Assembly (NCBI GenBank): GCA_010093605.1
Contig: MU004196.1
Coordinates: forward strand, 580,606 to 644,605
Source of the DNA: Lophium mytilinum
Taxonomy: Eukaryota
Length of the DNA: 64,000 bases
Reading direction: 5' to 3'
This document shows positions 3,101 through 46,244 of this stretch, one piece after another. A program made the position numbers and the translations under genes. Each line of letters begins with the position of its first letter. The first letter of the stretch is position 1. Under the pieces are notes generated by a model. The model searched no databases and had not been told where the DNA came from. It saw nothing but the letters and a program-made list of their open reading frames with translations.

Positions 3101-4603
3101 AGCGATGGATGTTGATCAGCGAGTAGGTAAATCAGACCGCGCAGAACAGCTGTGGCACTATTGATACGCGAGTCGGTGGCTTGACAGAAGAAGAAGGACA
3201 CAAAGCCACAGCCGGTTGACTTCTTTAGTTCGTCGAGAATCCCACAGAGCAGCATGGTCTTGCCCTTGCCCGGATCGGCGCTAATCCAGAGCAGTGTCCC
3301 TTCTGGGCCATCTTGCCATTGCTTGAGCTGAGGACTGTCGAGGATCCAGCGACAAGATTCACGCAAAATACCGCCTTTGGCCTGCTCAATACGTGTCTTG
3401 TCGTGGCGGGAATCGGTGGCCCGGAGGTCTCTCAAGCACTGTTCATCTTTCTTTTTCTCCTCATCTTCCTTTGATTGTTCATCTCGCTTTGATTGTCCAT
3501 CATTCTGTGATCTTAGGTTTGCGACAATCCGCTCGCCGGTATAGGCCTTGCGATGCAGTTCAAAGCGTTTCTCAGCATCCCGGATAGCTTTCAGATTGCC
3601 GTCCCAGTCATCAAGCTTGACAATGTCCCGTAAGAATTCGAGACCACGATGACGATAGTATGAGTAGACGCTCTTAATTTGGTATGTGAGAAGTACTTTA
3701 TAAAGATCTACAATCTGATTTTCCAGCTGGTATCTCACTTCAGAAAGTTCCCTGGCATCATCTGTAGATTCCTGGAGAAGGCTACTGAACAGGCTGCAGT
3801 ACCAATTCATGTTTTTGATAACGTATTCAACGCCTTGGCGGTTGGTTTCGGTTGCCTTGATGGGATTGGCAAGCATCTCCGGCAGTCAGCATGCGAAAAT
3901 ATCATTATGTAGACAAACTTACCTCCAAGGCAATGCAAACGCCGGTCCAGGGTAGGGCAGCTTGGGGCGCGACCCCAATAGCGGAACTGATTATATCCCT
4001 GGCTATTAGGACCGGGCCCATAGTGCGGCTCATGCCTTCTTTCATTTTAGCCTCCGGTGCGGTCTTGTCGAGACCGGTATAGACAAGCTGCTCCATTTGA
4101 TGTCGCCTTTCGTCTGGGTCACTCTGGCAGATGTTATTTGCCTGGTGCTCCGGTTCAGTAGAGGCACCCCTGTCCTTCTGCAAATTGTGAGACAAAATCC
4201 TTTCGTATTCGTCCAGGAGGGCCGGCTCCTTTTCTTTGAGGTCGTCGTAGGCTCGATCCCAGAGTCGCTCGGACGGGCTTGCAGTACGAGTGACATTCGC
4301 GTGTGTCGACCCATCGCCAGAGGTAGCCGCTCGAGCATTTGGGAGCGGCGAAGCGGACGTAGAGGTGGCAGTGGGTCCTTGTAGGAGGGGCGATATAGAC
4401 TCGAGTAGAGTAGCAGGTAGAGGAACGCCTATGGTGGTTGTAGAGTTTTGCATAGCATCTTCGGAGGTCGTCAGCACGACAGAGGTGCCAGTCGTACTTG
4501 CTTGTACAGCGAGCTGGGTTCGTTCTTTGTGTTTTTCCCGACCTGTCATGCCGCGACCTATTCGCGGAAGCCACTTCCGCCAGCATGATGATCGTTCCGG
4601 CAT
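133..4603 (-). CDS. NWD-type NLR (NACHT_N + NACHT + WD40 repeats), HET-E-like STAND protein; 3 exons (4603-3923, 3876-1948, 1899-133)
   Basis: NACHT_N-type motifs (ERLWDRAYDDLK, AALPWTGVCIALE); Walker A SADPGKGKT; Walker B LVVDALDEC; ~10 WD40 repeats (TLEGH..V.AVAFS.DG..LASGS.D.TVRVWD). Introns GTAAGT 3922..3877 and GTATGC 1947..1900 join the three ORFs in frame. Confidence 0.93.
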
Positions 4604-5262
4604 GGCAGCTAGGTAAAGGATGGGGGTGATTGAGACAGCGCGAGTGAAGCAGTGTTGGTGGTAAAAAGTTGGACTTGAGTTGAAAAAGTGTGTTACATCT
4701 GATTTACTGAAGTTGAGCGGAGGAACTGATGTAGAATATACTAACGGACTGGGGACGACCCCCTGCACGGCCATCCATACAGTCCTAATAGTCGTACACG
4801 TACAAAGGTAACGCAGTTTTGAGGAAAGAGGTCTGTCAGAAGCCGCCTAGTCAATTATTTTTGAGAGAGGTTGCCTCTAATGGATGCGACCACAGCACCA
4901 GACCTTGAGCAACCTGATGATTGGCCTTACTGATTCTAAGCTGCAGTGTCGGGACTGCGGTATAACTAAAGATGCTGGCAACGGTTGCAGCTGTGCTCCT
5001 CCCATTAGTCAATCAAGCCGGATCGATTATATTGCCGGATTATCGGTGATTAGAAGCCAAGTTTTATCAACGTCCTTTAGAACCATTGCTAACAATACTT
5101 TCTGGAAGGTGAGACTTCTAGCCCTATTATTATTCTATCAAGAGGCAGCGTAAGCCCTATTCGAGCCCCAGAAGTTGTCAATGTTAGGTTGTATTGCTGA
5201 ACGTCTAAAGTAATTAAGATATAGGGGTTACCTACGGCGTTCTGTCTAACTCCACTATCCCC

Positions 5263-13919: not shown

Positions 13920-15205
13920 GTTGAGGAGTTGTCAATGCCGTGACAGTGTTGGTATGGCTTTAGGTGGGCAGAACGCAGCCGGGTGGTGAATACCCAGGTA
14001 GGTCGCCACAAGACGTCTACGCAGAGCTGTGGCAATGGGCCGTTTGAACGACTAGTAGAGAGGAGAGGCTAAAAACAAGAGAAAAGTCAAGCATGCGCAA
14101 ATGAGGTCACTTCGCCATAAGGTTCGCCGCGGTCGTTGAGAGGATGCTCCAACGCGCTTCTGTCAACAGGTGGTTGTACCCAGGCGGGGCTTGCGTGGAA
14201 AATCAGGTTATGCTGTGCAATCGAGCTAATCTGCAGGCGAAATAGAGACGAGGTGTTTCCTTCGTGTATCGTGCCCCGTCAAACATCGACGTCAGCAGTC
14301 TCAAGGTTCAAGGATTGCGAGTAGAGGAGGAGCGGAGCTGGAGTGTTGGGCTGCGCTGGCTACGGACTTGGCCCGCGCCTATTCTATTGATGCCAAGCAA
14401 TTATGCGCAATCTCGAGGTCGAGTAAACAACCTCGTCACGCGGAGGGAAGCAACAGATATGTCAATGGGAGATACCGTATAGTTTCGGAATATCCGGACG
14501 CCACCCTTGGCAGCGCTAGTAGGGGGCTCTAATTTTAATTCCTTATCCGCCGCACCCGCTCAGTGCCTTAGTACATTAATCCTCTATCTAAATATACCTA
14601 AATCTATATATCTTTCTATTTAATAATAGCCTATACAACTATAAATAAAGCCCTAATTACTTTAGGGGAATTTAAGGCAGTTTATATATATTTTTTCCAC
14701 TTTTCTTATATATTACTTTACTAATTCTTATCTTATAGACGCTATACATAACTTTATTAATTCTCCACGCTTTAAAATAGATAAGAAGTATATCCTTATC
14801 TATTATTAGCCTATAGATTAGACGTATAATATATCTAGAGGTCCCGGAATCTCTCTCTAAGATGCTAAGGGATAATACTAAGGTTAGGTAAAGAAAGAAA
14901 ATCGCGTGCCTATTAATACACGCCTGTAAGCTAGCAGGCGTGTTATTAAATATATAATATGCCTAGGCTAAGGCTATAAGCGTCTAGATAGCCGCCTTAG
15001 TATTAAGTAGAAGATAAAGTTTAGTATAATAGTAGTATATATTTTACTAAGTTTCTAAGTATAGATTTCTATCTCTATAATAGTTGCATAGAGTTCTACT
15101 TTAGGTAGTAAATAGATTAGATAAACGCAATTAATTTAGTTCTAATTTAAATAAAATCTATAGAAATTTAAATAAGTTATAATTTTTTTTATAATAGACT
15201 GCATA

Positions 15206-15953
15206 AAATAGGAAGTCTATAGAAGGGCTGCGCAGTCTTGCTATAAATCTACTTAAGAGTAATAACTTAATTAAATATTTATTAATTCTTACGTACTTTT
15301 TACAGGTTAACAGTATATATACAGGCAAACAGCGCGCTTAATTATAGCTAGACTATATTAGTAGATTTAAGAGATTTATAGTTTAAAGATCTATATATAT
15401 AGAATATTTTATAAGTAAATTTATCTAGTTCTAGTATAGCTTAGTAGTTAGTATAGTACTTCTGTAGATTAAATTCTTAATATAATAAGCTTAAGGAGCT
15501 TTTATTGCGGGAATTTAATCTGCGGAAGCATAGAGAGTAGAAGGTTAGTAGTACTCTTTTTATAGTTTAATTTCTAGCTAGACTGCTTTCTTTTTACTTA
15601 AATATTTATTAATCCGTACGCGCTTTTAATAGGTTAACAGCGTATATACGGGCTAACAGCGCGCTTAATTATAGCTAGATTACATTAGTAGATTTAAGAG
15701 ATTTGCGTACTAAAGAAAGTGTAATAGCCGGAGGCGTAGACTGTTTTTATGCTCTAGGCCTATACACCTTATTTAAACCGCGAATCTCTTAAATCTACTA
15801 AGGTAATCTAGCTATAATTAGGCGCGCTGTTAGCCCGTATACACGCCGTTAACCTATTAAAAGCGCGTAACTATTCTATAATAATTAACTAATTTATTAC
15901 TCTTAAGTAGATTTATAGTAAGGCTGCGCAGCCCTTCTATAGACTTCCTATTT
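15206..15953. repeat. Nested foldback (long inverted plus direct repeats) inside the transposon
   Basis: 15206-15265 matches the reverse complement of 15894-15953 at 58/60; 15617-15707 matches the reverse complement of 15779-15869 at 86/91; ~15290-15378 is a direct copy of 15617-15707. Confidence 0.9.
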
Positions 15954-16149
15954 CCTTATAATATACTCTCGGCAGCTACCGCCGGAGGACGTAGAACAGC
16001 TAATACTAGACGGATTAGAACGCGCTTTTAGATAGAATAAGGTATAATATATTATAATTAACTAGTAGTTAGTCTAAATAGAAAAAGTATATTATATATA
16101 TTAAAATAGGCGTTTATAGTAAGAATAATAAAAAATTAGCCCCCCCTTC

Positions 16150-18070
16150 TACTACTAGCCCCTTAGTTTACTCTATATAACGCCCCTGTAATTCTAAACC
16201 GCTATAACTCTACTAATATATATTATATTAAGAATCTAAGACTATAGGCCTATTACCTAAGTTACCGGCTTTAAAGCTAGAAGATATAAAGCTATTATGC
16301 GGCGTAGTTATAAGATTAATAGGGTTATCCGGAGTATTTAATTACAGTTCTAAAACCTTATTTTAGCGCTTAAGATTATACGCCATTAATAGCTTAATAA
16401 TTAGCTGTTTCCGGAGCCCTAAGTACTTCTTAATTCTACGCTTTTTATACAACTTAGTAAGCTATTTAATAGTTCCGTTCTTATACTAATAGCTATTTAT
16501 CTTATTATCTCTACTTATAAAGTGTAGGTTATTATTATTAAAATTAGGCTCTTATTTAATGTATATTAAAACAATAGGTGCATCGGCCCACGTAGAGAGG
16601 TCCTATTCCTCTAGCTTATAGCCCTTAATGCGGAGCTTACTATTCTTGCTTCTATTAGCTGCTAGCAAGATTCCTATATCTTAGAATGCTTTAATAATAA
16701 GCTCTAGCCGTAATTAGAGTATCTTCTTAGCAGCAGAGACCGCCTAGGTAGTAAGGATTCTCTTATCCTCTAGCTTATCTTTCTTAGGCTTCTCTCTAAT
16801 AGTATACCGCTTCTCTAGGAGGTCCTCTATATTCTAAGTAATCTACTTCTTATAGGGCTTATTAATAGCTATATTAAGAGGCTATAGATAGCCTATGCAG
16901 CCGCCGGGAATTATTAATATAAATACCTTATTTAATATAAGAAGGTTTTTAATAGCCTTAGTCTTATAAAATGCTGCAGCATTAAGTAAAAGAAGAGACT
17001 CTAGCGCGTTGCCTTCTGCGTTCTTATTAGCTAGAAAATAGGTTTCTATTATCTAGAAATAGAATAGCGTCTTATTATTATATATATGCTCGTTAACGTG
17101 CATAATTATATTCTTAGAGTACTTTTCTCCTTTCTTTTTAATAATTATTCTAGCCTTAAATAATAAACCTTTAAATATTATTATAGGTTTATATCTGCCT
17201 ACACTATTAGCGCAGATATAGAGTATAAGAGTAGCCTGCCGCTTATTATAGCCGCTTTTAAAGACTTATATAGTAACCTTCTTAGCTTCTTTAAAGTTAT
17301 AAGTATACTAAGTAATCTACTTATAAGGAATAGGCGTCTTATTAAGGTTTACAATTTAAGATAGAGAAAATTAATAGTAAATAGGCTATAGAGAGTTAAG
17401 AGGTTAATTAAGAGCTATTTTAAAGAAAGCCCCTAGAATAATTAGTTACGTAATCTACTAGTTATATAGCAGAAACGCTAGTATATACTTCTTTAAGAGA
17501 ATAGGCGGTTTAAAGGCCTTCTTTATAACTGCCTAGTATAAAATTTAAGTATAACTAAGGAAGCTACTAAACTAGCCTTTTAAAAAGGTAAATATAGTTT
17601 TACCCTCCTTATAGAGGTCTTTAAAAAGCTTATTTAATTGCCTTTAGAACTAATAAAGGCGAACCTAGAGTCTTCTTTCCCTTTTAATAATAAATTCCTT
17701 ATATAATCTCTTCTTAAGGAGGTTCTATTTACAGAAGTAGTTAATATAAGCTAGGTAATAATTTAAACGCGGCGTTTATAAAAGTAAATTAACCTATAAC
17801 GCCTACGCTACTATATTTAACTTGCTAATCTTCTAGAAGCATTCTGCCTTATTAAACGTAGGTTTATATTAATTATAAGTAGGTATCTAGAGGGGATAGC
17901 TATAGAGAATATAGTCCCTTTTATAAGGTTATATATTAATACGGGTTAGATTACACTATATAAGGACCTCTAGCTTCTTCTTAGTAGAGTACGTAGTTTA
18001 TTTTATCTAAACCGGCGTTGTGCGTATTCTTTTAGTAAGTATATAGTTATCTAAAGCCTTTCTTTTCCAT
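16150..18070 (-). pseudogene. RIP-destroyed pogo DDE_1 transposase (ends approximate)
   Basis: Minus-strand translation: IVNLNKTPIPY (from N.DETP), KRQATLILYICAN, KPIIIFKG, LLLLNAAAFYKT (from LLLDAA.FHKT), IPGGCIGYL*PLNIAINKPYKK (from QPLD), LRIKG. The many TAA/TAG stops fit C>T/G>A changes. Confidence 0.9.
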
Positions 18071-23109: not shown

Positions 23110-23860
23110 TCCAGGCAGATCAATATAAGACCTCACAGAAATCCTTGATACCCACTCCTCAGTCGCAATACAAAATCTGGCGTAAGGAGTTCCACTTGGC
23201 ATACCCATCAAACCCATCGTCATGGCTGGACTGGCGTTACCGTCTTGGGTTCGATCGGCCTCCCATATCCCGGCGTACACGGCGAGATTACATCTACACG
23301 TATCCTTGTTTCCTTTTGAGCAGTTCCTTTCAGCCTTTTCATCCTGATCCCCTGCAATTGAGGCGCGGATTACTTTCTGCTCAACGTGTTATGATTTTCG
23401 AGGCAAATAAGGTCAGCGTGAGCCGTAATTAGCGTTTAAGAGCCGAAAAGCGCCTCTTGAGTTCGTAGGGGTGAGAATCTTCGCGTAACATCTTAGATCG
23501 ATGCTCTTTTGAAGCGCCGGCAATACTACTTCTAACCAAAGCATAGATCAGAGATCTATGCATGTCCCCAAGAACCCTATTGCCTAGCCATCTATATAGG
23601 CTGATTTGCGTATCTTTACATGCCGCTCGTTCTATGTGATAATGATTCACGAGTGGAATCCCCAGCTAATTAACACTTTCTTTTTTACTCCAGCGACGGA
23701 GCCTCCCGACGTCCGCGCTGCAAGGCTGAGAAAAGCCTTGGAGTCTGCCGCGGCTCAGCCTCGACCCCATTCTCTACCTTCCCAAGTGAACAAGAAGGCT
23801 CGAAGTCGCAAACATTAGAAAGTCCACATTTTCTTATACGTTTCAAACCCAACAGGCCTC

Positions 23861-26800
23861 ATGAGTGACCCAATCTCTGTTGCCGGCACGGCAATTGGAG
23901 TGGTCTCTCTAGGACTCAGCCTTTGCCAGAATCTTGTTGATTACGTGGAAGCTTTGCAGGACCGAAAGAATAACGTTCGGTCGATCTTGAGTAAAGTAGA
24001 TTGTCTCCGAACCTCTCTAGACATGGTCAAAGATGCAGTCAGTCACGTTTCACCCAGCCATCGGAATGTCGTCGATGCTGTGGAGAAGTGCCTTCGCGAG
24101 TCCGAGGCTGAGATGCGCCGCTTGGATGTGTATCTCAAGAACCTGAAGTGCGATTACATCATCACAGATAGCAAGAGCAAAAAGGTTAGATCGACCGCCC
24201 GAAAGCTCTTGTACCCTTTCAAGACGGCCAGCATCTAGAAGTTGGAGAGCGATATTCAAGCCATCAACGGTATCTTGGCAACTGCATTGCAGGCCCTTGG
24301 AATGTTAGTTACACCTTTCATAGTCCTCACATTGTCTCCAATCCACAATTCACGCTATTTCGCACTTTTTTCGGCAGTGTATTGTAGAGGTCATATATTA
24401 TAGCGATTTGACCTTGCGCGGAGGGTTGGTCCGACCGTCTTGTAGACATCATGTCTTACTGTCCCAGCTTCTCTGTTTAAACCCCGGCTTATTCGCTTTC
24501 AAAGTTAACATTGCACTCACAGCGACATCGGTAGCACACACTCAGGGCAGCTTTCTTCGCTCATCTCTACATCGGCCACCACGTCTGCTGCTGTTGGTTC
24601 TGTTCTCGATGGCGTTGTGGCTCTCCGTACCGATGTCTCGAACCTGTCATCAGACCTTTCAGTATCCGGTTCCTTGAACGAACAGAATCTCAACGAAGTT
24701 CGCCGAAATGTCTCAGTTATTATGCCAGAAGTGCACTCAGCGTTGCCTGCTATCAAGTACTCCGCAGCGGAAACGACGAAAAGCACGACTATCATTCAAT
24801 CTGATGTAAAAGCAGTTGGACAGGACATTGGCCAGATTAAGCAGGAGATCTTCGCATCGTCTAGTAGGCTAGAGCGAAACTCGGATCTTGTGCAGAGCCT
24901 GTTCTCCGAGCTCACCGAATTTCGATCAGATCATGCATCCCGGATGGAAAGTCTTGTAAGTAGCGACTGCCATCAAGCTCTGCTATGCTGACAATGTAGA
25001 AGGAAACAGAATTGCGCACTCTTCAATGTCGCCTACTATCAAAACCTGACGCCCTGCGTACCGTCTGCGACGACTACAAAATCTCTCAACCACCAAATCG
25101 CAAACGATCTCGTTTTGGGTCGCAAGGAATAAGGCCCTCTCATGCTTACTGTTGCTTGTTATGCAATTGTACTGCGAGCCGTTCCCTGGCCATAGGTCGT
25201 TATCTCTCGGGCTATCTATCCATATCTATCGAAAGGGAGGCTCATAAAGAGGTTCATGAGCAAGATTGCCCATTTCACAGCTCTCCAATGCGAAGCCGGT
25301 CCGTGAGGGCATCATTGTCTTGCTATGGGTCGTTCCTAGCTGGTACTTTGTCCACTGAGTTATCTTTCAGGACAGGCGCTGGTGGATGCTCGATCGCTCC
25401 ATCCCTCTCCTACAGTAGGATCGTGGCATGGGATTCCCCCGCATTCTTCCTTCTGGAATGCGAAACGGACTACTTCATCCGCGATAGATTCTCAGTGCCA
25501 CGGTACTATAAGGATACTGAAGATATCTTAGATCTATTGAATGCAGTGCCAACAAAGCTGCTCGAGATATTCGCTCGAAGACAGAGTTTACCGACAGATC
25601 TGAACGAACGAGGACAGTCGTTATGTCATGTAATAAAAATTTCCGTCCAATAGCGTATTCTCAGATGCTTACCGTTGACAAAGGTCGTTATGAAACTTAT
25701 AGACAAAAGAATGTGTAAAGACACCCAGACGGTTGAAGCTTTTCTTAGGATACTTCGCGTTCTGGTTTCGGTCGGAGCTCCCGTCAATCGTCTTGACTAT
25801 TCTGGCTGGTAAGCTATACCGTGGCGAGTCTAAGTCAACTTCTCTGCTAAGTGACTATATCAGTTCCCCAATGGATCAGTTTTGGCTTGAGATAGATCCC
25901 AATTATCCCTGTGACCTGGCACATATGGTGAGAAGTACAACCCTGGAATTGATCGATGGAGGCCTAGACATAGGTCCGGAGTTCCAGCCATCTCATCATC
26001 TAGGTTCGTTTTATCAAAGCTGTCTATCGGAGTGCCATGAGCTTGCAGAGAGTAAGAACCCGTAAGATAGTACAATGACCGCGAACTAAGAACATCAGTC
26101 TTCGAGTGTGGTCTCCTGAGCATGGCAGTACTACGGAAGTCTGAAAGGGAGATGCTGTATATCCTATCGAAATCGCCGAAAGCCGTACAAGAAAGAAACA
26201 AATTCGGGCAGACGCCGCTGCACCTATCTTGCGATTGGGATCGAGGAATGAAGATATTGATCGATGCAGGTACCGACATCGATGCGGTAGATTGCTGTAG
26301 TCGTCCAGTATTTCGTTACTGCGCCGAACGCAACTCCATCGAGTCGCTCGACCTCCTGCTCGAAGCTGGCTGTTATCTGTCAGGTCTCTGCGCCTTAGGG
26401 ACTGTCCCTGCACTCTCATTCGCGTTTGAAGCTGCTTCTTTGGACATCAAGCGACTGTTAGCAAATTCAATAGCGCAACGGCGATACGGCTTAAAACAAC
26501 TAGGGCTGGCTGCTTTGCCTATTCAGTCTCACCAGGCGCTTGGCCTACTTAATAGCGGAGCTTTGGATGGGAAGCTAGAGGGGCTCCTCGGTGCTTTGAG
26601 GACACAAAATATCCATATTCCATCGTTGTTCGAGAATCCGGGATATTTCGGACGTTGTTCTATCTATCATATGCGGGAACTCTCAATCGAGAGCGCAGAG
26701 ACTTTGTACAACGCTGGATTCATTGACATTGACGCATTAGACGAAGACGGCTTGCCACCGGTTTGCTTTCATTCGATGCAAAGGTCCTATTTAGTTTACT

Positions 26801-27840
26801 CTTCGGACTTCTCTCTTTTGAATTGGTTCTTACTGAAGGGTGCTAACTTGAATGCAAGCCTTCGCATGAAGGTTGGCAACAATACGACTCGATCGTGGAA
26901 GACTGCGCACGTTTTAGCGTACATGCTCGGCCAGAACATGCATAATCCAGGTTCCGGCTGGCATGCAGAATGGTATCATACTGTGTGCTGTCAACTAGAC
27001 CCGGATTGTCACGACATTATCGCCGGCAGCTGTATTGAAACATGCAAAATCGAGAGTCCCGACAGTTGCACTTGCGGGTGTTCCTTGCAAGGGTGTACTT
27101 CAAGCACCTTCATTATTAAAGGCTTGATTAGACGGTCCCAGGCATCTGACGGGTTCATTCAAATTCTCAGTCGCCACTGCTCACCAAACCAGACGTACTG
27201 GTCCTGGCAAGTACAGCAGGCGATACGAATCCTCACATTCAACGCATTGGGCTTGCGACACACTTGCTGTCTGTGGTTTTCATATAGGCCGTACGTCTCC
27301 GTTCAAACGCAAGAGGAGGTAGACGAGATCCGCGACGAAGACCGTCACCAACTCGAGCGGTTTGAAGACCTTGTCCAGGAATTCCAAATTGCATTCAACG
27401 AATCCGAAGAAACGTTACTGTCTTTTTTCCGCAACTACTGGACCCCGCGTATTGAAGAGGTGTTGAACGAACCCTACCCCGAGGACGAAGAAGAAATCCG
27501 ACGAATCGAGAATATTGGCGTCGTCTTAGAGAGACCACCTCTTACTGAACGCGAAGGTCAACTTGTACCAACTCCGTCAGTAGTCTTTGAGGACATCTAC
27601 TGCGACAACTGTGACATGCTCGTAGCAAACGAGCACTTCCACTGCTGCATCTGCAATTTTGACGACTACGACCTCTGCGCAGCTTGTTTCAACTCCGGCC
27701 TTCACTGTCATAGCAGAGACCACTGGATGATCAAGCGCTTCGTAAAGAACGGCATAATCACCGAAAGTAATACTGAGCATATTGGATTCAAAATGAAGTT
27801 TAGACCTACTCCGAGGATAGCGTGTCAAGTGCTTTCATAG
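23861..27840 (+). pseudogene. HeLo-like N-terminal domain + ankyrin repeats + Cys-rich region + ZZ zinc finger; 6 exons, one in-frame TAG at 24236-24238
   Basis: MSDPISVAGTAIGVVSLGLSLCQ (Helo_like_N type); ankyrin-like GQTPLHLSCDW; ZZ YCDNCD...HFHCCICNFDDYDLCAACF. Exons 23861-24303, 24523-24955, 25000-25629, 25684-25808, 25864-26051, 26099-27840 splice in frame; the TAG is the only lesion seen. Confidence 0.8.
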
Positions 27841-31155: not shown

Positions 31156-32022
31156 TCAGTCAAATTTACTACAAAAGCAATCCTCCTCAGAGTCTTCAGC
31201 TAAGATGGCTCCCTCTGCTTGCGTCAAATCACTCTTCCACTCCCAAGGATGCAAGGGCAGCGATCTGTCCATGACAGCTTCCATATTGCAGCTTCTCCAA
31301 CCCAAATGGGGATATCTTGTCCCATCCGCTTGACTCCTAAATTCGAGATTTTCTCGGCTTTCGAAATCTTGACATTGGAAGGAATCGCGGTTCTTGTAGT
31401 ACAGTTCCACATCGATTCTCCCCGCGTTACCGTGGGCTTCATGAAGTATCCACCGTACCCCAAAACTCGCCTCGAATTGGTCAGCAGGCAGAAGAGCCAA
31501 AAAGCCCTCCACAACATCGTAGAGCAGGCCCATGGTTATTCCTCCCTCTTGCTCTATCTCCACATAATCCCGAGGTTTTTCATTGCGCGGGGCATGCCAG
31601 GAATCCCCGATTCGCGAGAAATGCGACCGAAGGATGGTCAATTTTGTGGGTGGGGGCTGAATAGGCAGCATATGTCGCCAACTTGCCTCTTTCCTCAAGA
31701 GTACCTCTCTCCGAGACGTTGATCCGAACCATGGTAAGCCAATAATGCTGTGCCGGCTAGGAACGCTCTCGCGATCGGCTGGATATGTGAACCATGGCCG
31801 GAATTGCTCGATGAGGATGTGATTTGGCTCCCAGGCATACGACGCGGTCTTGGGTTCTGGGCGCAAGTAGAGGGCGCGTTGGAGAATAGGTGAGGAGCGA
31901 ATCGTATGCCAGAAGCTACGTGAGACAAGCTGCACAGAAAGGAGGGAGTGGATCGAGAGCGGGAGAAGAATGAGTTCGAGGAGTTCAGGGATTTCGAACA
32001 CACGTTGGGTGGGTGTGGCCAT
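31156..32022 (-). CDS. F-box protein (fungal lineage-expanded type)
   Basis: RVFEIPELLELILLPLSIHSLLSVQLVSRSFWHTIRSSPILQRALYL F-box, followed by EASWRHMLPIQPP typical of this family. Confidence 0.85.
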   Translation of the reverse strand: MATPTQRVFEIPELLELILLPLSIHSLLSVQLVSRSFWHTIRSSPILQRALYLRPEPKTASYAWEPNHILIEQFRPWFTYPADRESVPSRHSIIGLPWFGSTSRREVLLRKEASWRHMLPIQPPPTKLTILRSHFSRIGDSWHAPRNEKPRDYVEIEQEGGITMGLLYDVVEGFLALLPADQFEASFGVRWILHEAHGNAGRIDVELYYKNRDSFQCQDFESRENLEFRSQADGTRYPHLGWRSCNMEAVMDRSLPLHPWEWKSDLTQAEGAILAEDSEEDCFCSKFD

Positions 32023-32328
32023 TGCAATGATAAAATTGCTAGAGGTTTCTTGATAGGGGATTGTTGACAAAAGGGACTATACGTATGTAACGTCGTGGCT
32101 GATGTAACGCACTGATCAGAAGTAGGTGGAATTGTTCCCCAAGGTGAGGGGAGTGAAGTAGGGGCGATGAGATTAAAGTCGGGAGGCATTGAATTAGACT
32201 ATGTGGGCCGATCACGTGCGACGTCAACTGCAACCTCCATCAACCTTATCTCAGTTGCCCTCAAACCCTCTACCGAGGAAGGCCCGTCATCACGGCACGT
32301 GATGACGGCATTCCTTATAGAGGGTCTA

Positions 32329-32987
32329 AGGACATTTAGGCACAGTTTATAAGGAATAAACAGCTAAAACAGCTAACCTTTAACGCTGCATCTTAACCCT
32401 TAATATAATACTAAATAGCCTACTATAACTATAAGGCGCTAGCCTATCTTCTACTCTATCTCCTGCATTTAATACTAAGTTTAGCTATACTATAACGCGC
32501 CTATATTTTTAAGAAAGTAGAGCCTATACTAAAAAGTATATAGGCGTACTAAGAAATCTTTTAATACTATATATTAACTATTAATATAACTCTAAATAGC
32601 CTACTATAACTATAAGGTGCTAGCCTATCTTCTACTCTATCTTCTATATCTAATACTAAGTCTAGCTATACTATAACGCGGCTGTAATTCTAAGAGAGTA
32701 GACGTATGCTAAAAGGTATATAGGCGTGCTAAAAAATATATAAAGAGAAATAAGGTATAGTAGTCTAGTTTTAAAAAATATACTTTTAACTTTAATACTA
32801 TATATTAACCCTTAATACTATAGCTAGCTAGGTATAACTCTTAAAAGATAGTAGAGAAAAAACTTATAATTAAAATATATTAAATACTAAGACTATAGCT
32901 AATAAATTTACCTTATAGTTAATATTTAAAAAAGGTATACCTCTTAAAAATAGACTAGTTTACACTAAACGGGCGCCCAAATGTCCT
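32329..32987. mobile_element. RIP-mutated non-autonomous TIR element (MITE-like), 659 bp
   Basis: Left end TA|AGGACATTTAGGCACAGTTTA versus reverse complement of right end TA|AGGACATTTGGGCGCCCGTTTA; AT-rich TpA-rich interior; ~150 bp internal direct repeat with 181 bp period (starts 32411 and 32592); no ORF. Confidence 0.85.
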
Positions 32988-33446
32988 TAGACGCGTCTCC
33001 GAGGAATTTTGGGGGGGTGGTAGGAGGGCTGGGGGCTGGGGGCTGAGGGCGGCAGGTAAGGGGGTGGGGCGGGCCTTACTGTATTGAGTTGGAAATGACT
33101 CGGAGACGCGGCTGAGGCACCTGAGATAACATCAACCTAATGATGATCTCTGAATGCTTCACTTTTGTATGATAAGTTATATATCTGCTAAAATGGACTC
33201 TCCGTCACAGCAAATAATGACCTTCAAACCGTAAACTCCTGATCGAAATGATGCCTTAGCGAATCAGGCACATATCCCGAGGTCAGCATCAAGGCTCAGC
33301 CTCGTAAGCCGCCACCCTCCATAGCCACTGTACAGCCTTGTCTACTCGGAACAAAAAGATGGCCAGAGCATGGTTCGAGTGGATAGAACGAAATTGACAC
33401 TATGATGTCTAAACACTGAGGAGAAATCCTCCAACGACTTAGCATC

Positions 33447-36400
33447 ATGGCCGAGATCGGGCTCATAGCGTCCGTCATCCAAGTCGCCGGCGCAGGCCTT
33501 AAGCTCGCCGACACGTTATACCAATACGCCGAAGCTGTCTCAACCGCCGACAGACGCATTAAAGACATCGCTAGAGATGTCAAATTGACCTCGCGCGTCA
33601 TCGACGAGCTAGGAAGCATCTTTAAGCAGGACGAAACCGCGTTGTTGCTCTCCAACAATGCCGTCAGTACAGCCCAGGAGACGGTGCGCGAGTGCTCCAG
33701 TCTATTCGAAGAGATGGACGCCGCGCTCAAGAAAACGAAGAAGAATACGCTGGGAAGATTCATGATGCCTTTCCGAGAGCCGAAGATGGAACTTCTCCGC
33801 GCGAATATCGATCGCTTGAAGAGCACGTTGCAGTTATTGATGCAGGTTTTGACGCATGCGTATCAGGTGGCTTCTCAGTATGTTTTGAAGATCAACAGCT
33901 ACTATAAGCACCTAGCTAATGACGGCATATAGTAAGGCGCCGAAAGAAGTGGTGGCAGTCCAGCGCCATAATATCAAGGTTCTGATTAAGGCTAAAAAGG
34001 AATCTACGAAACGATATCAGGAGTCCTTAAGAAGCTACAGTATGAGTGACGAGAGCACAGTCTTGAAGTAAATCACGAAACTTTTGTTATCATCGAGTTC
34101 GTAGACTGACATTCGCAGTGACGACGAAATCTCTATCAACACGAAGGCGCTCGGCACGTCGACAGAGAAAGGCAGTGGATTTGTCACAACCGCCTCCTCG
34201 ATTAGCTCAACCATCACCAAGACAAGCCTAGCGTCATGTGTTGCACATATCCAGAAATTACTGAACGATATTGAACTCGTGCAGCATGCGCTAAACTCCA
34301 ACATCGAAGGCGAAGACGCTTCAGAACACGAACAGGCTCTTGTCGGCTCCTACTTTAGTGCTCGTAAACACCTCGACACCATCATTCTCGGCGGCTCGGG
34401 CCCAGGGAGAACCGACTCAGGCCTCTCAGAGGAGACGCTAGTAACGCCTCAAGGAAGAAATAACAATCAACAAGAGAACGCCGCAATGCTCGCCCCTCCA
34501 CCTGAAGAGACAAAGCCGGCGGTAAAGTTCGTTGATGCCATAGGGAGAAAGTTCGCTTTCCCATGGCAGTCAGCCAAAAGTTGGAGCGTGAGCCCACCCA
34601 CCCTTCTTTAATTCGGTTGCAATTCCCTGCTCTTCCTCCTTTCTAATACATTCAAAGGCAACACAAGGGCTGATCAACGCCGGCTTCGCTCCTATAGAAG
34701 GCTTGAACGAACACGTTGAGGCTGGCCACTACGACCTCGTGGGCCCGGACGGCGAAATCATTCTGCCCCAAATTTGGGAAACCTTCATCGAGCCTGGTAT
34801 GACTGTCAAGATGGAAATGTGGCCAATACCTCCACCGCCTCCACCACTTCCGCCAGCCATGGGGCCAAGTATGCCGGGTCCTCTTGATACCGGCACCTCG
34901 CAAGATCCGTCTGTACTACATGATCCGTTGAGGATACCAACAAAACTAGGACGGGAGCGTGGAAGTGCCAAAAAAGCAATAAAGTCGGGGGAAAAACCAA
35001 AAAGCACGACCAGCCCCCTCCCACCTCCACCTCCTCCTCCTCCACCCCCATCCCTTCCTCCCTCAGACCTCAAAATAGAGTCTACACTTGCCAAAAAGAC
35101 AAAGAAGTCGAAGAAGAAGTTAAAGAAAATACCAAAAGCCGGAATTCTCTGGGCATCTGGAAGCACTTCGCCGCCCGATTCGTCCGCAAAAGACGAAGTG
35201 AGCACAAAAAGCACCGCAAGAATGGTAAATGTAGGACCTGACTACGCCTTCCGAGAACGCGCTCGAAGTCGCTCAAGAGAGCGACAAACCTCTCTAGAGC
35301 CGGAGCATGGGAAAGCTAAGGCAGAGCGCGAGTCGGTGGAGATAGCTCGTGAGCAGATTCTGCGAGGGAGGATGGAGGAGCTTTCGAAGAGGAGAACGAA
35401 TTTGATGATTACCAAAGATGAGGCAAGGCGCAACAGAAAACATGTACGCATCGAGCTCGAAATGGATCACCTTAGAGAAGACATGGAAAGGATGCGCTAT
35501 AATGCCAGAAGGGAGCGTGAGGGTGAAGAATCACTCCGAAAGCGAGAGGAGGAGGAAGAGGCTATGCGAGAAGAGTTACGTCATAGGCAAAGGAACGAAG
35601 AGGAAGCTCGCAACGAGTTCGAAGAAGCTCTCCAGAGCAGGGAGCGGCCCGCTCGTTCAAGATATCAGTTCGAACCTGATGACTCCTTGGACGAAGACGA
35701 AAGCAATCTGGACGCATTTCTAGGCGCTACGAAGCGGCTGAGCGCGCTAGCTAGAGTCACAGGCCAAGAAGTGGACACGCAGAACACAAGTATCTCGCGA
35801 ATCGTCACAAAGACAGATAAAGTCGATGACCAAATTGCTCTCGTAAGCCCACTCGTCACCATTTCTTGACTGAAATAGAAAAGATCCACTAATATACCGA
35901 ACTATAGAATCGACAGCGACTTGATCGAATCGGGTTTGATCCTCCCAAACGACCCCAATCTCCTCCCAAACCCTACAGCGCCCAAGGAGGCCTCCACGTT
36001 GGCGACAACGACATCGACTTTAAGCTCGACAACTACTATAGAAAATCCAAAAATACTGACTATAGTCCCCACCCCAAGGCGGACATCTTCGAAGCTAAAA
36101 TAGCCAACGCAGTCGACGACAACACCAGCGACTCCGAGTCGTTTGTGTTTACCGCGGATTTTCTTGCCTCGGATTTGGACGCTGCTCCAAGTCAAGGCAA
36201 ACGTCAACATTCCCCGGCCCCCGCAGCGGCCGCGGTTTCAGGATTGGTAGAGTACGGGTCCACTGCCTCATTCACCCCAAGTTCGGAAGCGGAATACTCT
36301 GAAGGCGAAGAGCTCAGCTCTCCTGATATCGCGATCGACGGCGAAGTGGATGATGCGGAGGCCGTGCCACCGCCCTCTCAGCCTGCCCCGAAGCTGCGCA

Positions 36401-36825
36401 AGAGGACCAAGACGGGATGTTTGACATGTCGTAAGCAGAGGATTAAGTGCGGAGAAGAACGTCCTATTTGCAACAACTGCATCGACTCGAAACGTCTTTG
36501 CGAAGGATACAACCAGCGTGTTGTTTTTAGGGCGCCCACCGGAGAGTGGCCCAACCATCCGTCCACTGTCAACACACTTCCCCGGTACAGTTCAATGTTT
36601 TCCGGGGCCCGCCCTCAACAGGTAGAAGAGTGGGAGACTGGAAAACCCAGTAAACGGGATGCGAAGATGCAATTCATTGATGTTAAGGCTGGGGTTGATG
36701 AGGATGACGAAGATGACGACGAGGGCGAGGAGGATGCTGAGGTGGATGACCTGTTGAGTGAATGGACGACGCTCAAGAGGGAGGAGTATATGGAGGGAGG
36801 GGTAGACGTGAGAGGGGAGGCGTGA
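33447..36825 (+). CDS. Mosaic protein (~1045 aa): HeLo-like N domain, fungal ubiquitin-like domain, Pro-rich and coiled-coil region, Sec9-like Qc-SNARE, Vac7-like motif, Zn2Cys6 cluster; 5 exons
   Basis: Exons 33447-33877, 33933-34067, 34119-34587, 34658-35842, 35908-36825 total 3138 nt with no internal stop; each intron has a GT donor, a CTRAY branch site and an AG acceptor. Confidence 0.82.
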
Positions 36826-40134: not shown

Positions 40135-43100
40135 ATTTAGAAAGAGATAAGAGATGGATGACGATGTAAGCTGAGAGAAAGAGATAACAGATTTGACGAT
40201 GTTGATAACTAAGGAAGATCCTCCTGGGCTATTCGAAACCTACACTCAAGTGATGTCAGAAGCACCGAGTCCAAGATCACGCTGGATCTTCGCACTATCA
40301 AAAAAGCAGTTCAAACAACCTTATCGTCGACTCGCGCAGATCCAGCCAATGCCAGAACAGTCGCGTGGAGCTACCAATCTTGCCATAGGCTTCGGCCGAA
40401 TAAGGCGCTACCCCTCACCTTCTTTCGACGACGCCGCTGTTGCTCGATCGGCACGCTGCGAGCGAATCAGGCGCGTCCAGCACGATAATCAGGCCATGCG
40501 ACGAATCAAGGCGGGGCGGACTCCAGGGCTTGCTTCTGAGAGGTTGGCTGTCCGTTGATACATATTCAGGGCGGGAATATGTATGTACAGTGTGGCAGCG
40601 TCTCACACCGACATTTGGCATCCCCGCGCGTTAACGAGGGCAATATGAAAGTCAATATTCGCGCCTGGCGACGGCGGCGGCAAAGTAGGTGCGAGGGCGC
40701 CCAAATCGGTCCCGCGGAGACTGGGATCGGAAGTAAACAGCCGCTGGCGGGTGGTCGAGGTGGTGCGAGTGTTGGGAATCGCGGAGAGGAGGTCAGAGTC
40801 ATGGCCACGGGTACTTATCGAATAATCCCCCACAACGAAAGCGAGTGCCTGCAAGCGAATCCCGCGGACGGCGAGCACGCTAGCCCGCAGCCTATCCAGA
40901 GGAGGATAGGCTTGCCACGTGTTGCAAACCCTGCTCGCGCGGGCTTTGGCCAACGGCCATGACTCGGCGACCAGAAAGCTGCCCAGGAGAGCCGATTCGC
41001 CGGATGATCTACGGCAAGCCGTAGGGCAGAGACGGGATTCTGAGGGCCTGAAGGCTGCGGAGGCTTCAGCCCACGATACACATCCAACGAAGAGATCGTG
41101 AACGCGTGCAGCCATCATGCAAGCCTCAAGTTGCGTGCGAGATCCAGGCCTCTTGGCCCAACAGACGCATCCCAGCAGTCCATGCCCCCAACCAGCCTGT
41201 CCAGCCTTGCTCCTTGCAAATTGTCGAAGCGATGCAAAGGCTCCCCCGTTCTCGCAGTGACCCCCAGCACCGCGTCGACGCAGCAGTATGGACCACAGGC
41301 GCTGTGCGCTGCGGAGACCGAGTGAGCGCGCCTGGCGCTGATATTTACGGCGGGTATCTCGGAGGAGGCCCATCCCAGCACGTCTCTTGCCTCGCTCTTT
41401 GCGCTCTGCGGGCTTCCTCGGCCTATTGCTGGTGAGGCGCGAGCGGTTTCCACTAGCCATGCTGGCTGCATGCGGACACGAGGCCACAGTCGGTCCAGCG
41501 TGTCATATGCTCCACCAACCCGCTCGCTACTTGACCGCAACAACGAGCGGAATAGGCCCGCCAGATATCGGTGATCGGCCCAAGTGCCGTCCACGATGCT
41601 GCCGGGAGCACTGCCGGACGCTCTGCTGCCGGCAAACCGGGCCTCGAAGTGTCGACACTCGAGGGCGTTTCACAGCCCCTTGCCGATGATGCTGGCACGG
41701 CGACACGCAGGACACGAGGGCGAAACGTGGGGGGCGTGCGCTGGGGCCGAGTCGGAGATTTCGCCAGGCTTCTTGCCAGATGCGACTGGTGCTGATGGGC
41801 GAACGTTCTGCCCGGCTTCGCTGCTAGCTGCTTCGGCATCCCGAACCCCTGACGGCTCGGCACACAGCTCCTTCGTCTTGTTCTCCCGCCCACGCTGACC
41901 AACCGCGCCGACTAATGCCTCCGCCAGCGTCCCCACCAGCGTCTCCACCCTGCGCAAGAAGCACATCTCAGACATGCGGGCAGCCGGGCCATTCCGCCGC
42001 TGGTGCCGGCGGAGAGGAAGGCTTGGTTGTCGCGGGAGGCCGCGCCCGGAAACCCTGAAACCCTGAGGGCGGTGGAGGCAAGGAGCTCCTGGCCGCGGGA
42101 GAGCTGGGCTCATGTCTCGCAGCCGCAAGCAACGTGTCTCACTGCGGGGACGTCGCACACGTGGAGCGATCAGTCGAGAAACATGTCGTCAGGCCCGCGT
42201 CCATCCACAACACACACCCAGCCGTCGCACTGCGTTGCCGGCGCGGCAGATGTCACGTTTGCCGCATGGGCCTGAGGATCTGCGGCACGCGAGCCGGTTG
42301 GTGTTTGCGCGTCGTCGGCCTCGTGTACGGTGTGCGTGCTGTGCGGCCTGGCTGCCCTGTTGCCTGTCCGCCGCTGAGACGAGGCGGTGCTGGGTGTGGC
42401 ATGCGGAGGACCACGGCCCTGACTCTCTGCTCCTGAGCATGAGATGAGGTTGTGCTGCCGCGGAATGTGGGCGGAAGGCAGGAGGCGGTGCTGACGGGAG
42501 ACTGGTCGGTCGGTCCGGGCCAGGGTGCAACGTGGAGGGCACGTTGTTGTGGAAAATTGTGGAATGGAGCTAGCAGCCACGTCCCGCACCGTCAGCGGCT
42601 TCAGGCATCAAATCCTCCAGCGCCCGTCTCGAGCCAGGGCGCTGCAGGACCGTCAGGTTAGTGACTCCAAGGGACAGAGCCGCAGTCCAGGCCGGCGATG
42701 CGCGCAGCCGTGGCCGCTGTTGCACACGACGGGGCTTTGAGGAGGGCAAAACGGCGGTGCAGCCGTCGAAACCCGGTTGACCTGGTGCCGTGCTGCTGTC
42801 TGAGAGGCCACGGCCCCGCTGCAGAAGGTATCCCGGCGACAACGTGCTGTGGAGCGCAGACTCGCAGATTCCTCCAGATGCAGAGCTGTCGTCAAAAGTC
42901 ATGCAGCGCCTCTTGTGAGCCATGCAGCGTCGCCGCCCGCGATCAGCACAGTATGCAGGCGCCATCGCCGTCTTCTCCGCCGCGTCGGCGAGCCCAGCGA
43001 GCCGGTGTCGACGGACCCGTCGAGGGTTGTTTGGCTTTGGCGGTGCTTGCTGGCGGTGCCCGTGATAGTAATCGGCGAGACTCTGTGCGGCGAAAGGGGC

Positions 43101-43612
43101 TTGCGATCCCGCGTCGGGGAGCTCCAGGGCCTCGTTGGACTCGTTCGGGGGCCTCCACGTGGGCATGCTACGGCGTGTCGCTGAGAGGAGTGGTGGTGCT
43201 GGCCCGATGCCGCTGTGGTGCTTTTGCAGATGCGCTGCAGATTCTCTGGATGCTCTGGATGCTTGCCAGAGCGCTGGAAGAGGCGTGGAGGTTATAGCCT
43301 GCGAAACATCAGCGCCCCATCCGCTCGTTGTACCTCAGCACTCTGCTCCCAAATTGCCGTCCCACCGCGATCTGCAGGGATGCCTCGTGGTCGCCCGCCA
43401 TGGATCGCGTTAGCTCTGCCCTGGAGTCTCACGGCCGGGGGCGCTGGATCATCACCAGGCGGGTTTAGGGCAGGCCAGTGTCGTAGGCCCAAGCCAGCGT
43501 GCAGGTAGCTCTGAAACACCCTTGCTCGTACCCACTCCGTCTGCGACCTGCCCAGGTCTGTGAGGTGCTCTCGCTGAGGAGCGCTCCTACCCTCACCCGC
43601 CCAGCATCCCAG

Positions 43613-46244
43613 ATGCCGTATACTACCTCCCCCTTCGCCTCACTCGACTCCATCTCCCCACCACTCCTCCCACTGCACTCCCACTACACTGCCCGCGCGC
43701 CCTCCCTCAGCGACACTGCCTCTGCTCCCGCTGCTGCGACTACTCACTCGTCGACGGCCCGATTGTCAGCAGCCTCGCTGATTGTGACCTCGGCCTCCGC
43801 TGCTGGTGAACTCTCTTCCGCCAGCGACACCACCGCGGACCCCAATTTTCAGCGAGCCGATCGAGCCCCGAGCGACCCCCGCCGCCTGTCTCGTCGCCTG
43901 CCGCTGCTGTCGAGGAAGCCGTCGCGCCCAGACGTTGCAGCACCCGACCACCAGCAGTCCGCATCGTCGAGCACCTCACCCGCCCACTCAACCGTCTCTA
44001 CGCCCTCACCACTCGCAATTCAGCAGCCGGCCCGCCCTTCTCTTTCGTTGCCGCGAGCCCGCGACAGTTCCGCCAGCCTGGGCTCGATTGCTGCAGAGGC
44101 ACGCCCGCCGACGCAGAGGAATCCCAGTTCGGGGTCGCTGTCTCAGACCGCCTTGTCGCCGCCGCTGGCGCATATAAACAGTTCCCGCAAGTCCAGCGAG
44201 GTGCCCGCTTCTTCTGTCGCCAACCGCCGCGGGAAGCTCCAGCTGTCTCGTTCGCTGTCTCGGCTCGAGTCTGGCCAGCGTAAACACAGTACTTCAGGCG
44301 TGGCCCAATCGCAGACCGCCAAGGACAAAAAGATGCATCAAACGTCGTCGAGGCTGCTCCGTATGACGGACGATGAGCGCCCATTCACTAGAGTAAGTGC
44401 AAACATTTTGTCGTGTCCCGGCGTGGCCCGGCTTCCGCTTTGGGCAGCCACGTTTAAACAGCCGCGCTCCTCGACCACCAACCTCGCTCCCCCACCATTA
44501 CTTTCCTTTTCACCTCCACCCACCTCAATTCCTTGAAGTCCCCGCCAGGATGCCCGCTATGGACTGGCGACAGACCCTCAAAATGGCCCTGGAGGTCACT
44601 AACCCAAACATGGCCGCCCACAAAGGCACTCCCGCAGGACTCCTGGCACGTCGAGAAGCGTTGGAATTGGCCGAGCGAATCACCTCCGCCCGCACCCGCG
44701 GCTGGCTCTCTCAGGTTGTCCTCTCCTGGATCAGCTAACTTTTACTATTCTGGATCTCGCATTTTGTAGTGAATTGGCTTAGCTAACGTGCATCTCATCT
44801 AGGACTTCAAAGATCTCTTCTCAACGCTCATGGTATCTCTCCCACTCATTCCGCACCGCGTGCGCTTCCACATGATCGACCACACCTTCACGACCGAGGA
44901 GGCCATCACCAACCTCGGCAGTCTCAAGTTCTCCCAGTCCAACCGCATGCCAGACCCCAAGGACTCCTCCCGCGTCGTAACCACGACCACAACAACCACC
45001 TTCTCAATGGCGAAAGAGATGGCTCGCTCAGTCTGCCAGAAGTTTCTTGACGCTCGGTTCATTGAGTCGGTGGATGGCAAGTCGGACTTCAACAGCAAGA
45101 GCTCCGTCTGGCAACTCACCCCCAAGGGCATCCACATCCTCGAACGCTTCTGCAACCGCAATGGCATCCAACAATCACATGTTCGCGACGTGACCAACTC
45201 CTCTCGGAATGCTGGAGCCCTCGTGGTTCTGGAACGTGAGCACGAGACGGATAGGCTAAACCGCGACGGGGACACGCTAAAGATTCTTTTCTCTCGATTC
45301 GTCGGCCACAAGGCAAATGATGAAGGAGGCTCCGACTCTGACTCGCTACACGAGTTTTGCCGCTCCAACGTCGGCGTCAGGATGATTCGGGAGCGCCGAT
45401 TCAATGACAAGCTCTACCTCTACACTTTCACCGGCAAGGCTACCGTTGACTGGCTCATGGACTGCTGCAGCATGGTCGACAAACGCGAGACGTACGAAGT
45501 CGGCGGCTTGTTCCTCGAGCAAGGCTTCATGGCTCCGGTAGAAGGCTACACTCCTCGTGATCGGTTCGTGGCCTCGAAGCAAGCTATCTACTACGTCACC
45601 CCGCTCGGAGAAGAAGTCGCGGGCTGGATTGCCACTCCTGAGGGCTCCGTCAACGGCGAGGCTAACGGCAAGCCCCGTGACGGTACGATGCGAGATTCCA
45701 ATGCCAATCGCATGGGAGTCATCATCACCAACCCGGCAGCACGTCTCCTGTTCCGCGAGTTCCTGCAGGAGAGCCATTGCGCAGAGAATCTCTCTTTCTA
45801 CCTCGAAGTTCAAGATTTCACCAAGCAGTATAAAGAGGCGAAAGCTATGAGCCCAGCCCCCAAGGTCGAGGTCATCCGCGAGACATTGGCTGCGGCGTAC
45901 AGCTTGTACAACGCCTTCCTTGCCCCTGGTTCTCCGAACGAACTGAACATCGACCATAGTCTCCGGACTCAACTCGCTAGCCGCATGACTCGGGCAGTTG
46001 GTGACGATACGTCAATGCTCAAGAGTCTAGATGAGGTTGCACTCCTGTTCGATCGTGCCCAGAACTCCATCTTCAAACTGATGGCCAGCGTAAGGATCCC
46101 CATGATTAGTCTATTCCTCTACTTATTACTAACTTCAGTCAGGATTCCGTGCCCAAATTTGTCCGGAGCCCGAAGTATCTACAACAGATCCGAGAGCGCA
46201 ATCTGGAGTCTTCCCTAGGAGCACCATCCCGCTCATCACCATAG
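43613..46244 (+). CDS. flbA: Regulator of G-protein signalling FlbA/Sst2 (DEP-DEP-RGS), 3 exons; start uncertain
   Basis: MHQTSSRLLRMTDDERPFTR|DFKDLFSTLMVSL; SQSNRMPDPKD; TTTTTTFSMAKEMARSVCQKF; FTGKATVDWLMDC; HCAENLSFY; AFLAPGSPNELNIDH; KLMAS|DSVPKF. Confidence 0.95.

Follow-up and report, generated by a model that had tools for sequence, protein, structure and literature searches.

A Sec9-derived Qc-SNARE helix, completed by splicing, lies within a 1045-residue mosaic protein of Lophium mytilinum

The DNA considered here is a 64,000-nucleotide (nt) stretch of Lophium mytilinum contig MU004196.1 (assembly GCA_010093605.1, positions 580,606 to 644,605 of the forward strand), referred to below as the window; all positions are those of the window. 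It contains a gene, termed the mosaic gene, whose product contains 71 residues copied from the C-terminal (Qc) SNARE helix of the exocytic protein Sec9. The gene is real and is expressed as one spliced RNA of five exons that encodes a 1045-amino-acid (aa) protein. The copy is Sec9-derived, far above chance, and it has evolved much faster than native Sec9. A tentative role is as a docking or competing module for exocytic SNARE partners, a reading given a probability of roughly 40%. The gene and the Sec9-derived segment are laid out as follows.

33447..36825, + strand: mosaic gene, whole coding region; five exons, 1045 codons, stop codon TGA at 36823-36825; exon model taken from the reading frames
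33447-33877, 33933-34067, 34119-34587, 34658-35842 and 35908-36825, + strand: the five exons
35654..35842, + strand: Sec9-derived Qc-SNARE segment, exon-4 part, aa 678-740 (Arg678-Leu740); acidic leader with YQFE, then layers -7 (Leu696, 35708) to +5
35843..35907, + strand: intron 4; 65 nt, GT..AG, phase 0, between Leu740 (beside layer +6) and Asn741 (layer +6)
35908..35931, + strand: Sec9-derived Qc-SNARE segment, exon-5 part, aa 741-748 (Asn741-Ile748); layers +6 to +8

A single 3396-nt contig from the public run X1 was used to examine the exon model. The contig aligns to 33300-36781 with 0 mismatches and lacks 33878-33932, 34068-34118, 34588-34657 and 35843-35907, which are all bounded by GT..AG and are exactly the four introns predicted from the reading frames. 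It extends 155 nt further 5' than the stretch compared. Run X1 is labelled 'RNA?', and the contig is read as cDNA because four precise GT..AG intron-sized joints within one contig are the pattern that cDNA gives. Since one contig skips all four introns, the five-exon frame is expressed as one spliced RNA, although contigs are blind to minor unspliced or alternative forms.

Intron 4 decides whether the helix is complete. The joint between 35842 and 35908 in the X1 contig has an unambiguous cut position, and the removed segment begins with GTAAGC, contains a branch-like CTAAT site and ends in TATAG. If the intron is retained, the frame stops at 35867-35869. Its removal opens 305 further codons past the junction, to the TGA at 36823-36825. 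The intron sequence occurs once in the window, giving no sign of an introner-type repeat. The preliminary description of this DNA had proposed a helix in the middle of a protein that is completed by splicing out 35843-35907 and followed by about 300 residues, and the X1 joint and the spliced frame bear this out. The peptide it quoted is present in the two segments listed above. It placed the feature at 35650-35931; the end of that span is correct, and the start lies 4 nt before the first quoted codon at 35654.

The origin of the helix was examined by sequence, structure and profile comparison. A search with exon-4 residues 320-395 against 5.8 billion protein clusters, covering proteins of 217-692 aa, returned 80 candidates, five of which passed E ≤ 0.01. 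All five are dothideomycete Sec9 proteins (E 5e-14 to 7e-12, 61-64% identity), from Didymella exigua, D. glomerata, Lophium mytilinum, Didymosphaeria variabile and Paraphaeosphaeria minitans. Measured against the C-terminal 75 residues of five dothideomycete Sec9 proteins, the copy is 64-67% identical. Among the 27 solved structures listed, yeast Sec9 ranks first (E 1.2e-4), followed by C-terminal helices of SNAP-25 (E 2e-3 to 1e-2). The spliced model aligns across the splice junction to residues 343-417 of the 418-aa Didymella exigua Sec9 (P0005) with 66.7% identity over 75 positions. With a profile of the five Sec9 proteins, the spliced model yields one domain, at 81.4 bits, and the match ends at the last profile positions. 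The cluster search, the yeast Sec9 structure, the profile and the alignment across the junction agree with the attribution to Sec9 made in the preliminary description. A search of the ESM Atlas with the SNARE part gave matches that all scored below 0.9, with t-SNARE/SNAP-25 clusters at 0.85; these are leads only, and exon-5 residues 9-150 gave nothing usable there.

The copy corresponds to one end of Sec9. The Sec9 profile, run with all filters off, detected no Qb helix upstream of the copy; confident alignment starts at about aa 678, and the blastp alignments further upstream are low-identity pairings of charged stretches. At the other end, nine native Sec9 sequences all terminate at the Ile that matches Ile748 or one residue beyond it. 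In the spliced frame 297 residues follow Ile748, so the Qc helix is internal rather than C-terminal.

The state of the helix was assessed against nine native Sec9 C-termini, comprising the five database proteins and four metagenome loci (L001 to L004). The zero-layer glutamine, reported as retained in the preliminary description, is indeed present as Gln720 (CAG, 35780-35782). The copy is identical to native Sec9 at this residue, at layer -1 and at layers +1 to +8. The core changes relative to Pleosporales-type Sec9 are conservative and are found at layers -6 (Leu to Phe), -5 (Ala to Thr), -3 (Gly to Ala) and -2 (Met to Thr); the residues at -3 and -2 are the states found in the native L002 Sec9. 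Of the 16 layer residues, the copy shares 12 with Pleosporales Sec9 and 14 with L002 Sec9. No helix-breaking residue, stop codon or frameshift was found in the copy. Relative-rate counts over nine triplets assigned 12-15 unique changes to the copy and 0-3 to native Sec9 (p 0.0002-0.02).

The intron positions in native sec9 genes bear on how the copy arose. The four native loci have three different intron positions in the Qc-coding part. L003 and L004 share an intron of phase 1 that interrupts the Asp codon of the NLD motif, where the helix begins, and L001 has an intron after IIGK. In L002 (locus coordinates 3959-4037) a 50-nt phase-1 intron lies inside the Asn codon that follows IAM, and the final mini-exon completes this split codon and adds eight more. 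The phase-0 intron of the copy lies directly before the same Asn codon, 1 nt from the L002 position, and the copy has no introns at the L003/L004 and L001 sites. By a rough estimate for a stretch of about 222 nt, chance would place an intron within 1 nt of any of the three native positions about 4% of the time. This closeness to the last intron of L002 hints that the captured piece was genomic DNA and carried the last intron of an L002-type sec9. Two observations weigh against this. L003, the closest in sequence, has an intron that is absent from the copy and none at the site used by the copy, and the introns of L001 and L004 are elsewhere too. The 1-nt shift between the copy and L002 also needs an explanation of its own. 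The comparison of intron positions proposed in the preliminary description, run here on the four metagenome loci, gave a near match at L002 and none at L001, L003 and L004. The most likely origin of the copy is capture, at the DNA level, of the 3' end of a sec9 gene, followed by quick divergence.

The protein that received the helix was identified by a search with exon 5. There were 1907 matches at E ≤ 1e-3 among 1.84 billion representative proteins. In the 150 of these that were listed, the best stretch covers a Zn2Cys6 cluster with its extension (approximately query 145-255), and a few matches reach further to either side; the Zn-cluster block is at the N-terminus in most of these listed relatives. 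Two of the 150, P0058 (871 aa) and P0071 (770 aa), also match aa 1-282 of the mosaic protein, and their identity to it around the Zn cluster is 75% and 43%, respectively. P0058 is KAL5401059.1 of Paraphaeosphaeria minitans, which one source names 'transcriptional regulatory protein C15D4.02-like'. The parts of the mosaic gene outside the Sec9-derived segment are the following.

33447..34398, + strand: conserved N-terminal region, aa 1-282; common to P0058 and P0071, 55-56% identity over 283 positions, E 3e-94 and 9e-94
33456-33836, + strand: weak match to PigL_N (HeLo-like, PF17111) within aa 1-143; E 2.7e-5, 24.1 bits, cut-off 27.2
34510..34828, + strand: ULD_2 ubiquitin-like domain (PF22893), aa 320-402; split by intron 3 (34588-34657)
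34829..35287, + strand: low-complexity linker, read from the translation; polyproline tracts at aa 403-408 and 467-476, polybasic patch from aa 491
35288..35653, + strand: charged helical stretch, aa 556-677; 122 aa with 31 Glu and 25 Arg, leading into the SNARE helix; of no known family
36067..36249, + strand: Vac7-like stretch, aa 794-854; 59-61 aa, positions 61-119 of Pfam Vac7 (PF12751)
36412..36672, + strand: Zn2Cys6 cluster, aa 909-944 (36412-36519), with a conserved extension of about 50 aa; Zn_clus E 4.6e-7
36739..36774, + strand: C-terminal motif EVDDLLSEWTTL in the acidic tail; common to P0058 and P0071

The two relatives share both ends of the mosaic protein and little of what lies between. 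Pfam detects only PigL_N and Zn_clus in P0058 and P0071, and neither relative has ULD_2, the SNARE helix or the Vac7-like stretch. The PigL_N score is above the cut-off of 27.2 bits in P0071 (28.7) and below it in P0058 (25.4). P0058 and P0071 align to each other in three blocks only, namely the N-terminal region, the Zn cluster and the end motif EVD.LL.EWTT, and the mosaic protein has its conserved N-terminus, its Zn2Cys6 cluster with extension and its EVD.LL.EWTT motif in the same order. The linkers of P0058 and P0071 resemble neither that of the mosaic protein nor each other, and ULD_2, the charged helix, the Sec9 helix and the Vac7-like stretch of the mosaic protein all lie within this non-conserved linker. 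Judged from these alignments, the host belongs to a small family consisting of a HeLo-like/PigL_N region, a hypervariable linker, a Zn2Cys6 cluster and a short end motif, and it is not a SNARE. That the relatives share both ends and lack the SNARE points to a regulatory host protein. The family is known from two relatives, a number that does not distinguish gain of the helix in the lineage of the mosaic gene from loss in the relatives. This architecture (HeLo-like N-terminus, ULD_2, Vac7-like stretch and Zn2Cys6) went unseen in the preliminary description and changes what the finding is.

Two of the linker elements are recognized families. The ULD_2 domain is matched in two consecutive parts across intron 3, profile positions 2-27 in exon 3 (E 2.9e-5) and 30-84 in exon 4 (E 2.8e-17). 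Among long proteins (693-2000 aa), a search with all of exon 4 picked up ULD_2 proteins only, which is weak evidence of absence. The Vac7-like stretch scores 32.8 bits with exon 5 as query (E 6.4e-8) and 38.4 bits with a 73-aa piece (E 1.2e-9), above the cut-off of 28.7, and it may represent another piece of a membrane-trafficking protein inside this linker, beside the Sec9 helix. Pfam found no family match in the low-complexity linker at 34829..35287. In a separate observation, the Zn2Cys6 block with its extension (36412-36672) is 56-63% identical to the N-termini of two proteins of about 360 aa, P0010 and P0011. By this resemblance the PigL_N...Zn2Cys6 family may have arisen by an older fusion with a gene of the P0010/P0011 type.

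The role proposed above starts from the residues that were kept. Because the zero-layer glutamine and every core residue of the C-terminal half are retained, the helix could still enter or compete for a SNARE bundle. The bundle in question would be the four-helix complex of native Sec9 with Sso, the syntaxin of the plasma membrane, and the synaptobrevin Snc; alternatively, the helix would bind other partners of the Sec9 Qc helix. As one option, the helix would hold the regulator at sites of exocytosis and so couple the state of secretion to the Zn-cluster end. As the other, it would dampen SNARE assembly in the manner of tomosyn, which acts by competition. In addition to the intact zero and C-terminal layers, this reading rests on precedents for single-helix SNAREs and SNARE-motif regulators; PMC2639358 describes both kinds, with Vam7 and tomosyn as examples. 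Tomosyn/Sro7, with an R-SNARE motif, and Vam7, with a PX domain and a Qc helix, carry one anchorless SNARE helix on unrelated domains, as the mosaic protein does. The mosaic protein differs from tomosyn and Vam7 in that its helix is a Sec9-type Qc helix, and in that HeLo-like, ULD_2 and Zn2Cys6 domains were not met with a SNARE helix in the searches run. Native Sec9, for example Didymella exigua P0005, has the same zero-layer Gln, the same layers -1 and +1 to +8 and the same YQFE leader as the copy, and usually exists as one copy in Pezizomycotina according to the portion of PMC2639358 that deals with it. The mosaic protein departs from native Sec9 in having the Qc helix only, with no Qb helix or Sec9 N-terminal region, in the internal position of the helix and in its faster evolution.

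Several results weigh against a docking or competing module. The match to the Sec9 profile is significant and intron 4 is spliced, yet the Pfam SNARE models give no match to the copy even at E values up to 10. Pleosporales Sec9 differs at four of the seven N-terminal layers, and 4 residues are missing from the acidic leader of the copy. Compared with six Pleosporales-type sequences, 12 of 16 core positions and 27-29 of 39 non-core positions are identical; the core is not preferentially spared, and this test of core against surface conservation does not separate constraint from drift. The fast divergence fits relaxed constraint as well as a new function. Fast and evenly spread, it argues against docking or competition, and it is neutral between the two readings considered next. 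Between the copy and L003, the nearest native gene compared, pN (the proportion of nonsynonymous differences) is 0.23 and pS (the synonymous counterpart) is 0.90; pS values of 0.88-0.99 against native sec9 are saturated and allow no dN/dS ratio, and the comparison mixes the native and copy branches, so that it neither dates the copy nor measures the constraint on the copy itself. A search of the long proteins with the SNARE part scored 0 of 73 candidates, which is weak evidence that the arrangement is absent elsewhere.

The alternative that survives best, although it is rather unlikely, is that the helix is a neutral passenger. A recent duplication would have dropped the 3' end of sec9 into a hypervariable, disordered linker, where it is tolerated as a decaying helical spacer with no SNARE-specific role. 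The linker of the host family is unconserved between relatives, and immediately before the copy comes a long charged helix that belongs to no known family. The helix is known from no other species, as none of the 73 long-protein candidates contained it. The copy is also much faster-evolving than native Sec9, with core and surface positions changed alike. Against decay, the frame is open through 1045 codons and the splicing is precise. The copy contains no helix breaker, stop or frameshift, and all eight C-terminal layers are unchanged. It also keeps about 65% amino acid identity despite synonymous sites that are saturated relative to the nearest native gene compared, a comparison that cannot date the copy.

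Less probable, and doubtful on present evidence, is that the helix serves as a bait. The Sec9 helix, and perhaps the Vac7-like stretch, would imitate trafficking proteins that microbial effectors attack or that NLRs (nucleotide-binding oligomerization domain (NOD)-like receptors) guard. A hit on the bait would release the HeLo-like bundle or the Zn-cluster end and trigger cell death or a transcriptional defence. Incompatibility pairs of NLRs and SNAREs under a guard model exist in fungi; three reports cover four fungal species, with SEC-9 homologues in three of them and a syntaxin in Botrytis (PMC12881547, PMC10197012, bioRxiv 10.1101/2022.04.03.486892). According to these reports, the protein guarded in the PLP-1/SEC-9 pairs is the same Sec9 that is copied here; in the mosaic protein the copy accompanies a domain family that fungal NLR systems employ to execute cell death. 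That family, PF17111, is HeLo-like and can be aligned with the MLKL executioner domain, according to the relevant section of PMC9815663. Fast divergence specific to the copy, often seen in decoys, and a second trafficking-protein fragment (Vac7-like) in the same linker are consistent with a bait, as are an NWD-type NLR and another HeLo-like gene with ankyrin repeats in the window.

The predicted fold of the N-terminus also bears on the bait reading. The AlphaFold2 model of the first 143 aa has four long helices in a predicted bundle, with a mean pLDDT (predicted local distance difference test score) of 67.8. Foldseek with this model returned nothing at E ≤ 0.001, the top match being IncA (E 7e-3). 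In VIA-align IncA was also first (Z 13.2), and in both searches many unrelated bundles came close after it. The coiled-coil (CC) domain of Rx (Z 11.3), the CC-R domain of NRG1.1 (7.8) and AtMLKL3 (7.1) were among the matches, so that plant NLR coiled-coils and AtMLKL3 appear at Z 7-11. These values are within the range of any helical bundle, for which Z below about 13 is common, and the fold searches do not discriminate. The PigL_N score of the mosaic protein is, in addition, under the Pfam cut-off.

The classical form of the bait reading is countered by what the gene and its surroundings lack. Pfam found no NACHT or NB-ARC (NOD) domain across all large exons of the mosaic gene. For fungal NLRs, kinase domains have been put forward as putative integrated decoys (PMC12258605, in the passages that treat them). 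The mosaic protein differs in having neither a NOD nor a repeat sensor domain. The mosaic gene is also unlike the PLP-1/SEC-9 pairs in having no adjacent patatin NLR, and Pfam scans of 47 open reading frames across the window found no patatin domain at all. The absence of a NOD and of a paired NLR argues against the classical form, and relatives with the same two ends and no SNARE suggest that the core job of the family is independent of a bait. Of the overall interpretation offered in the preliminary description, the Sec9-derived, spliced, mid-protein helix stands. The decoy or SNARE-complex competitor that it proposed remains a hypothesis; the protein has no NOD, the window is free of patatin NLRs and the relatives are without a SNARE. 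A more specific version, in which a single chain combines bait and executioner without a NOD, is very unlikely: a HeLo-like membrane-attacking bundle would be restrained by a linker displaying the Sec9 Qc helix and a Vac7 fragment, and cleavage or binding of the bait would lead to cell death or to a defence programme run by the Zn cluster. If this version were true, the protein would be the first integrated decoy of guarded SEC-9 in fungi.

In word searches of the open-access literature, no paper turned up that describes a Sec9-type helix within a fungal protein other than a SNARE. Lone SNARE motifs on other scaffolds are known in principle; the Sec9 donor, this scaffold and an RNA-verified intron inside the captured piece are new. 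The gene is a natural test case for whether a lone Qc helix can redirect a protein to exocytic SNAREs and for how multi-domain proteins assemble inside hypervariable linkers. Sec9 is essential. It is also watched by PLP-1-type NLRs in fungal allorecognition, as stated in PMC12881547, PMC10197012 and bioRxiv 10.1101/2022.04.03.486892, and the gene is likewise a natural test of whether fungi are able to make decoys of proteins under guard. Even with a helix that is no more than a passenger, the gene is a clean, RNA-verified partial gene capture with an intron inside the captured piece.

The window holds further genes and sequence blocks. Its only NLR is of the NWD type (NACHT_N, NPHP3_N/NACHT and a long WD40 array) and is located at 133-4846 on the - strand, about 30 kb from the mosaic gene. 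A second, distant HeLo-like/PigL_N open reading frame at 23819-27837 (+ strand) lies about 9.5 kb upstream of the mosaic gene (Pfam E 4.3e-5) and is 21% identical to the N-terminus of the mosaic protein. The same-strand open reading frames that follow it end in ankyrin repeats, with no NACHT or NB-ARC detected between. The immediate neighbours of the mosaic gene have no family match in the Pfam scans. The region 41000-44000 is GC-rich (GC content 0.64-0.66) and contains long overlapping open reading frames on both strands with no Pfam match. AT-rich blocks are found at 15000-18000 (GC 0.30) and 32000-33000 (GC 0.36), compared with about 0.52 elsewhere; the second block is just upstream of the 5' end of the mosaic gene and resembles degenerate repeat DNA.

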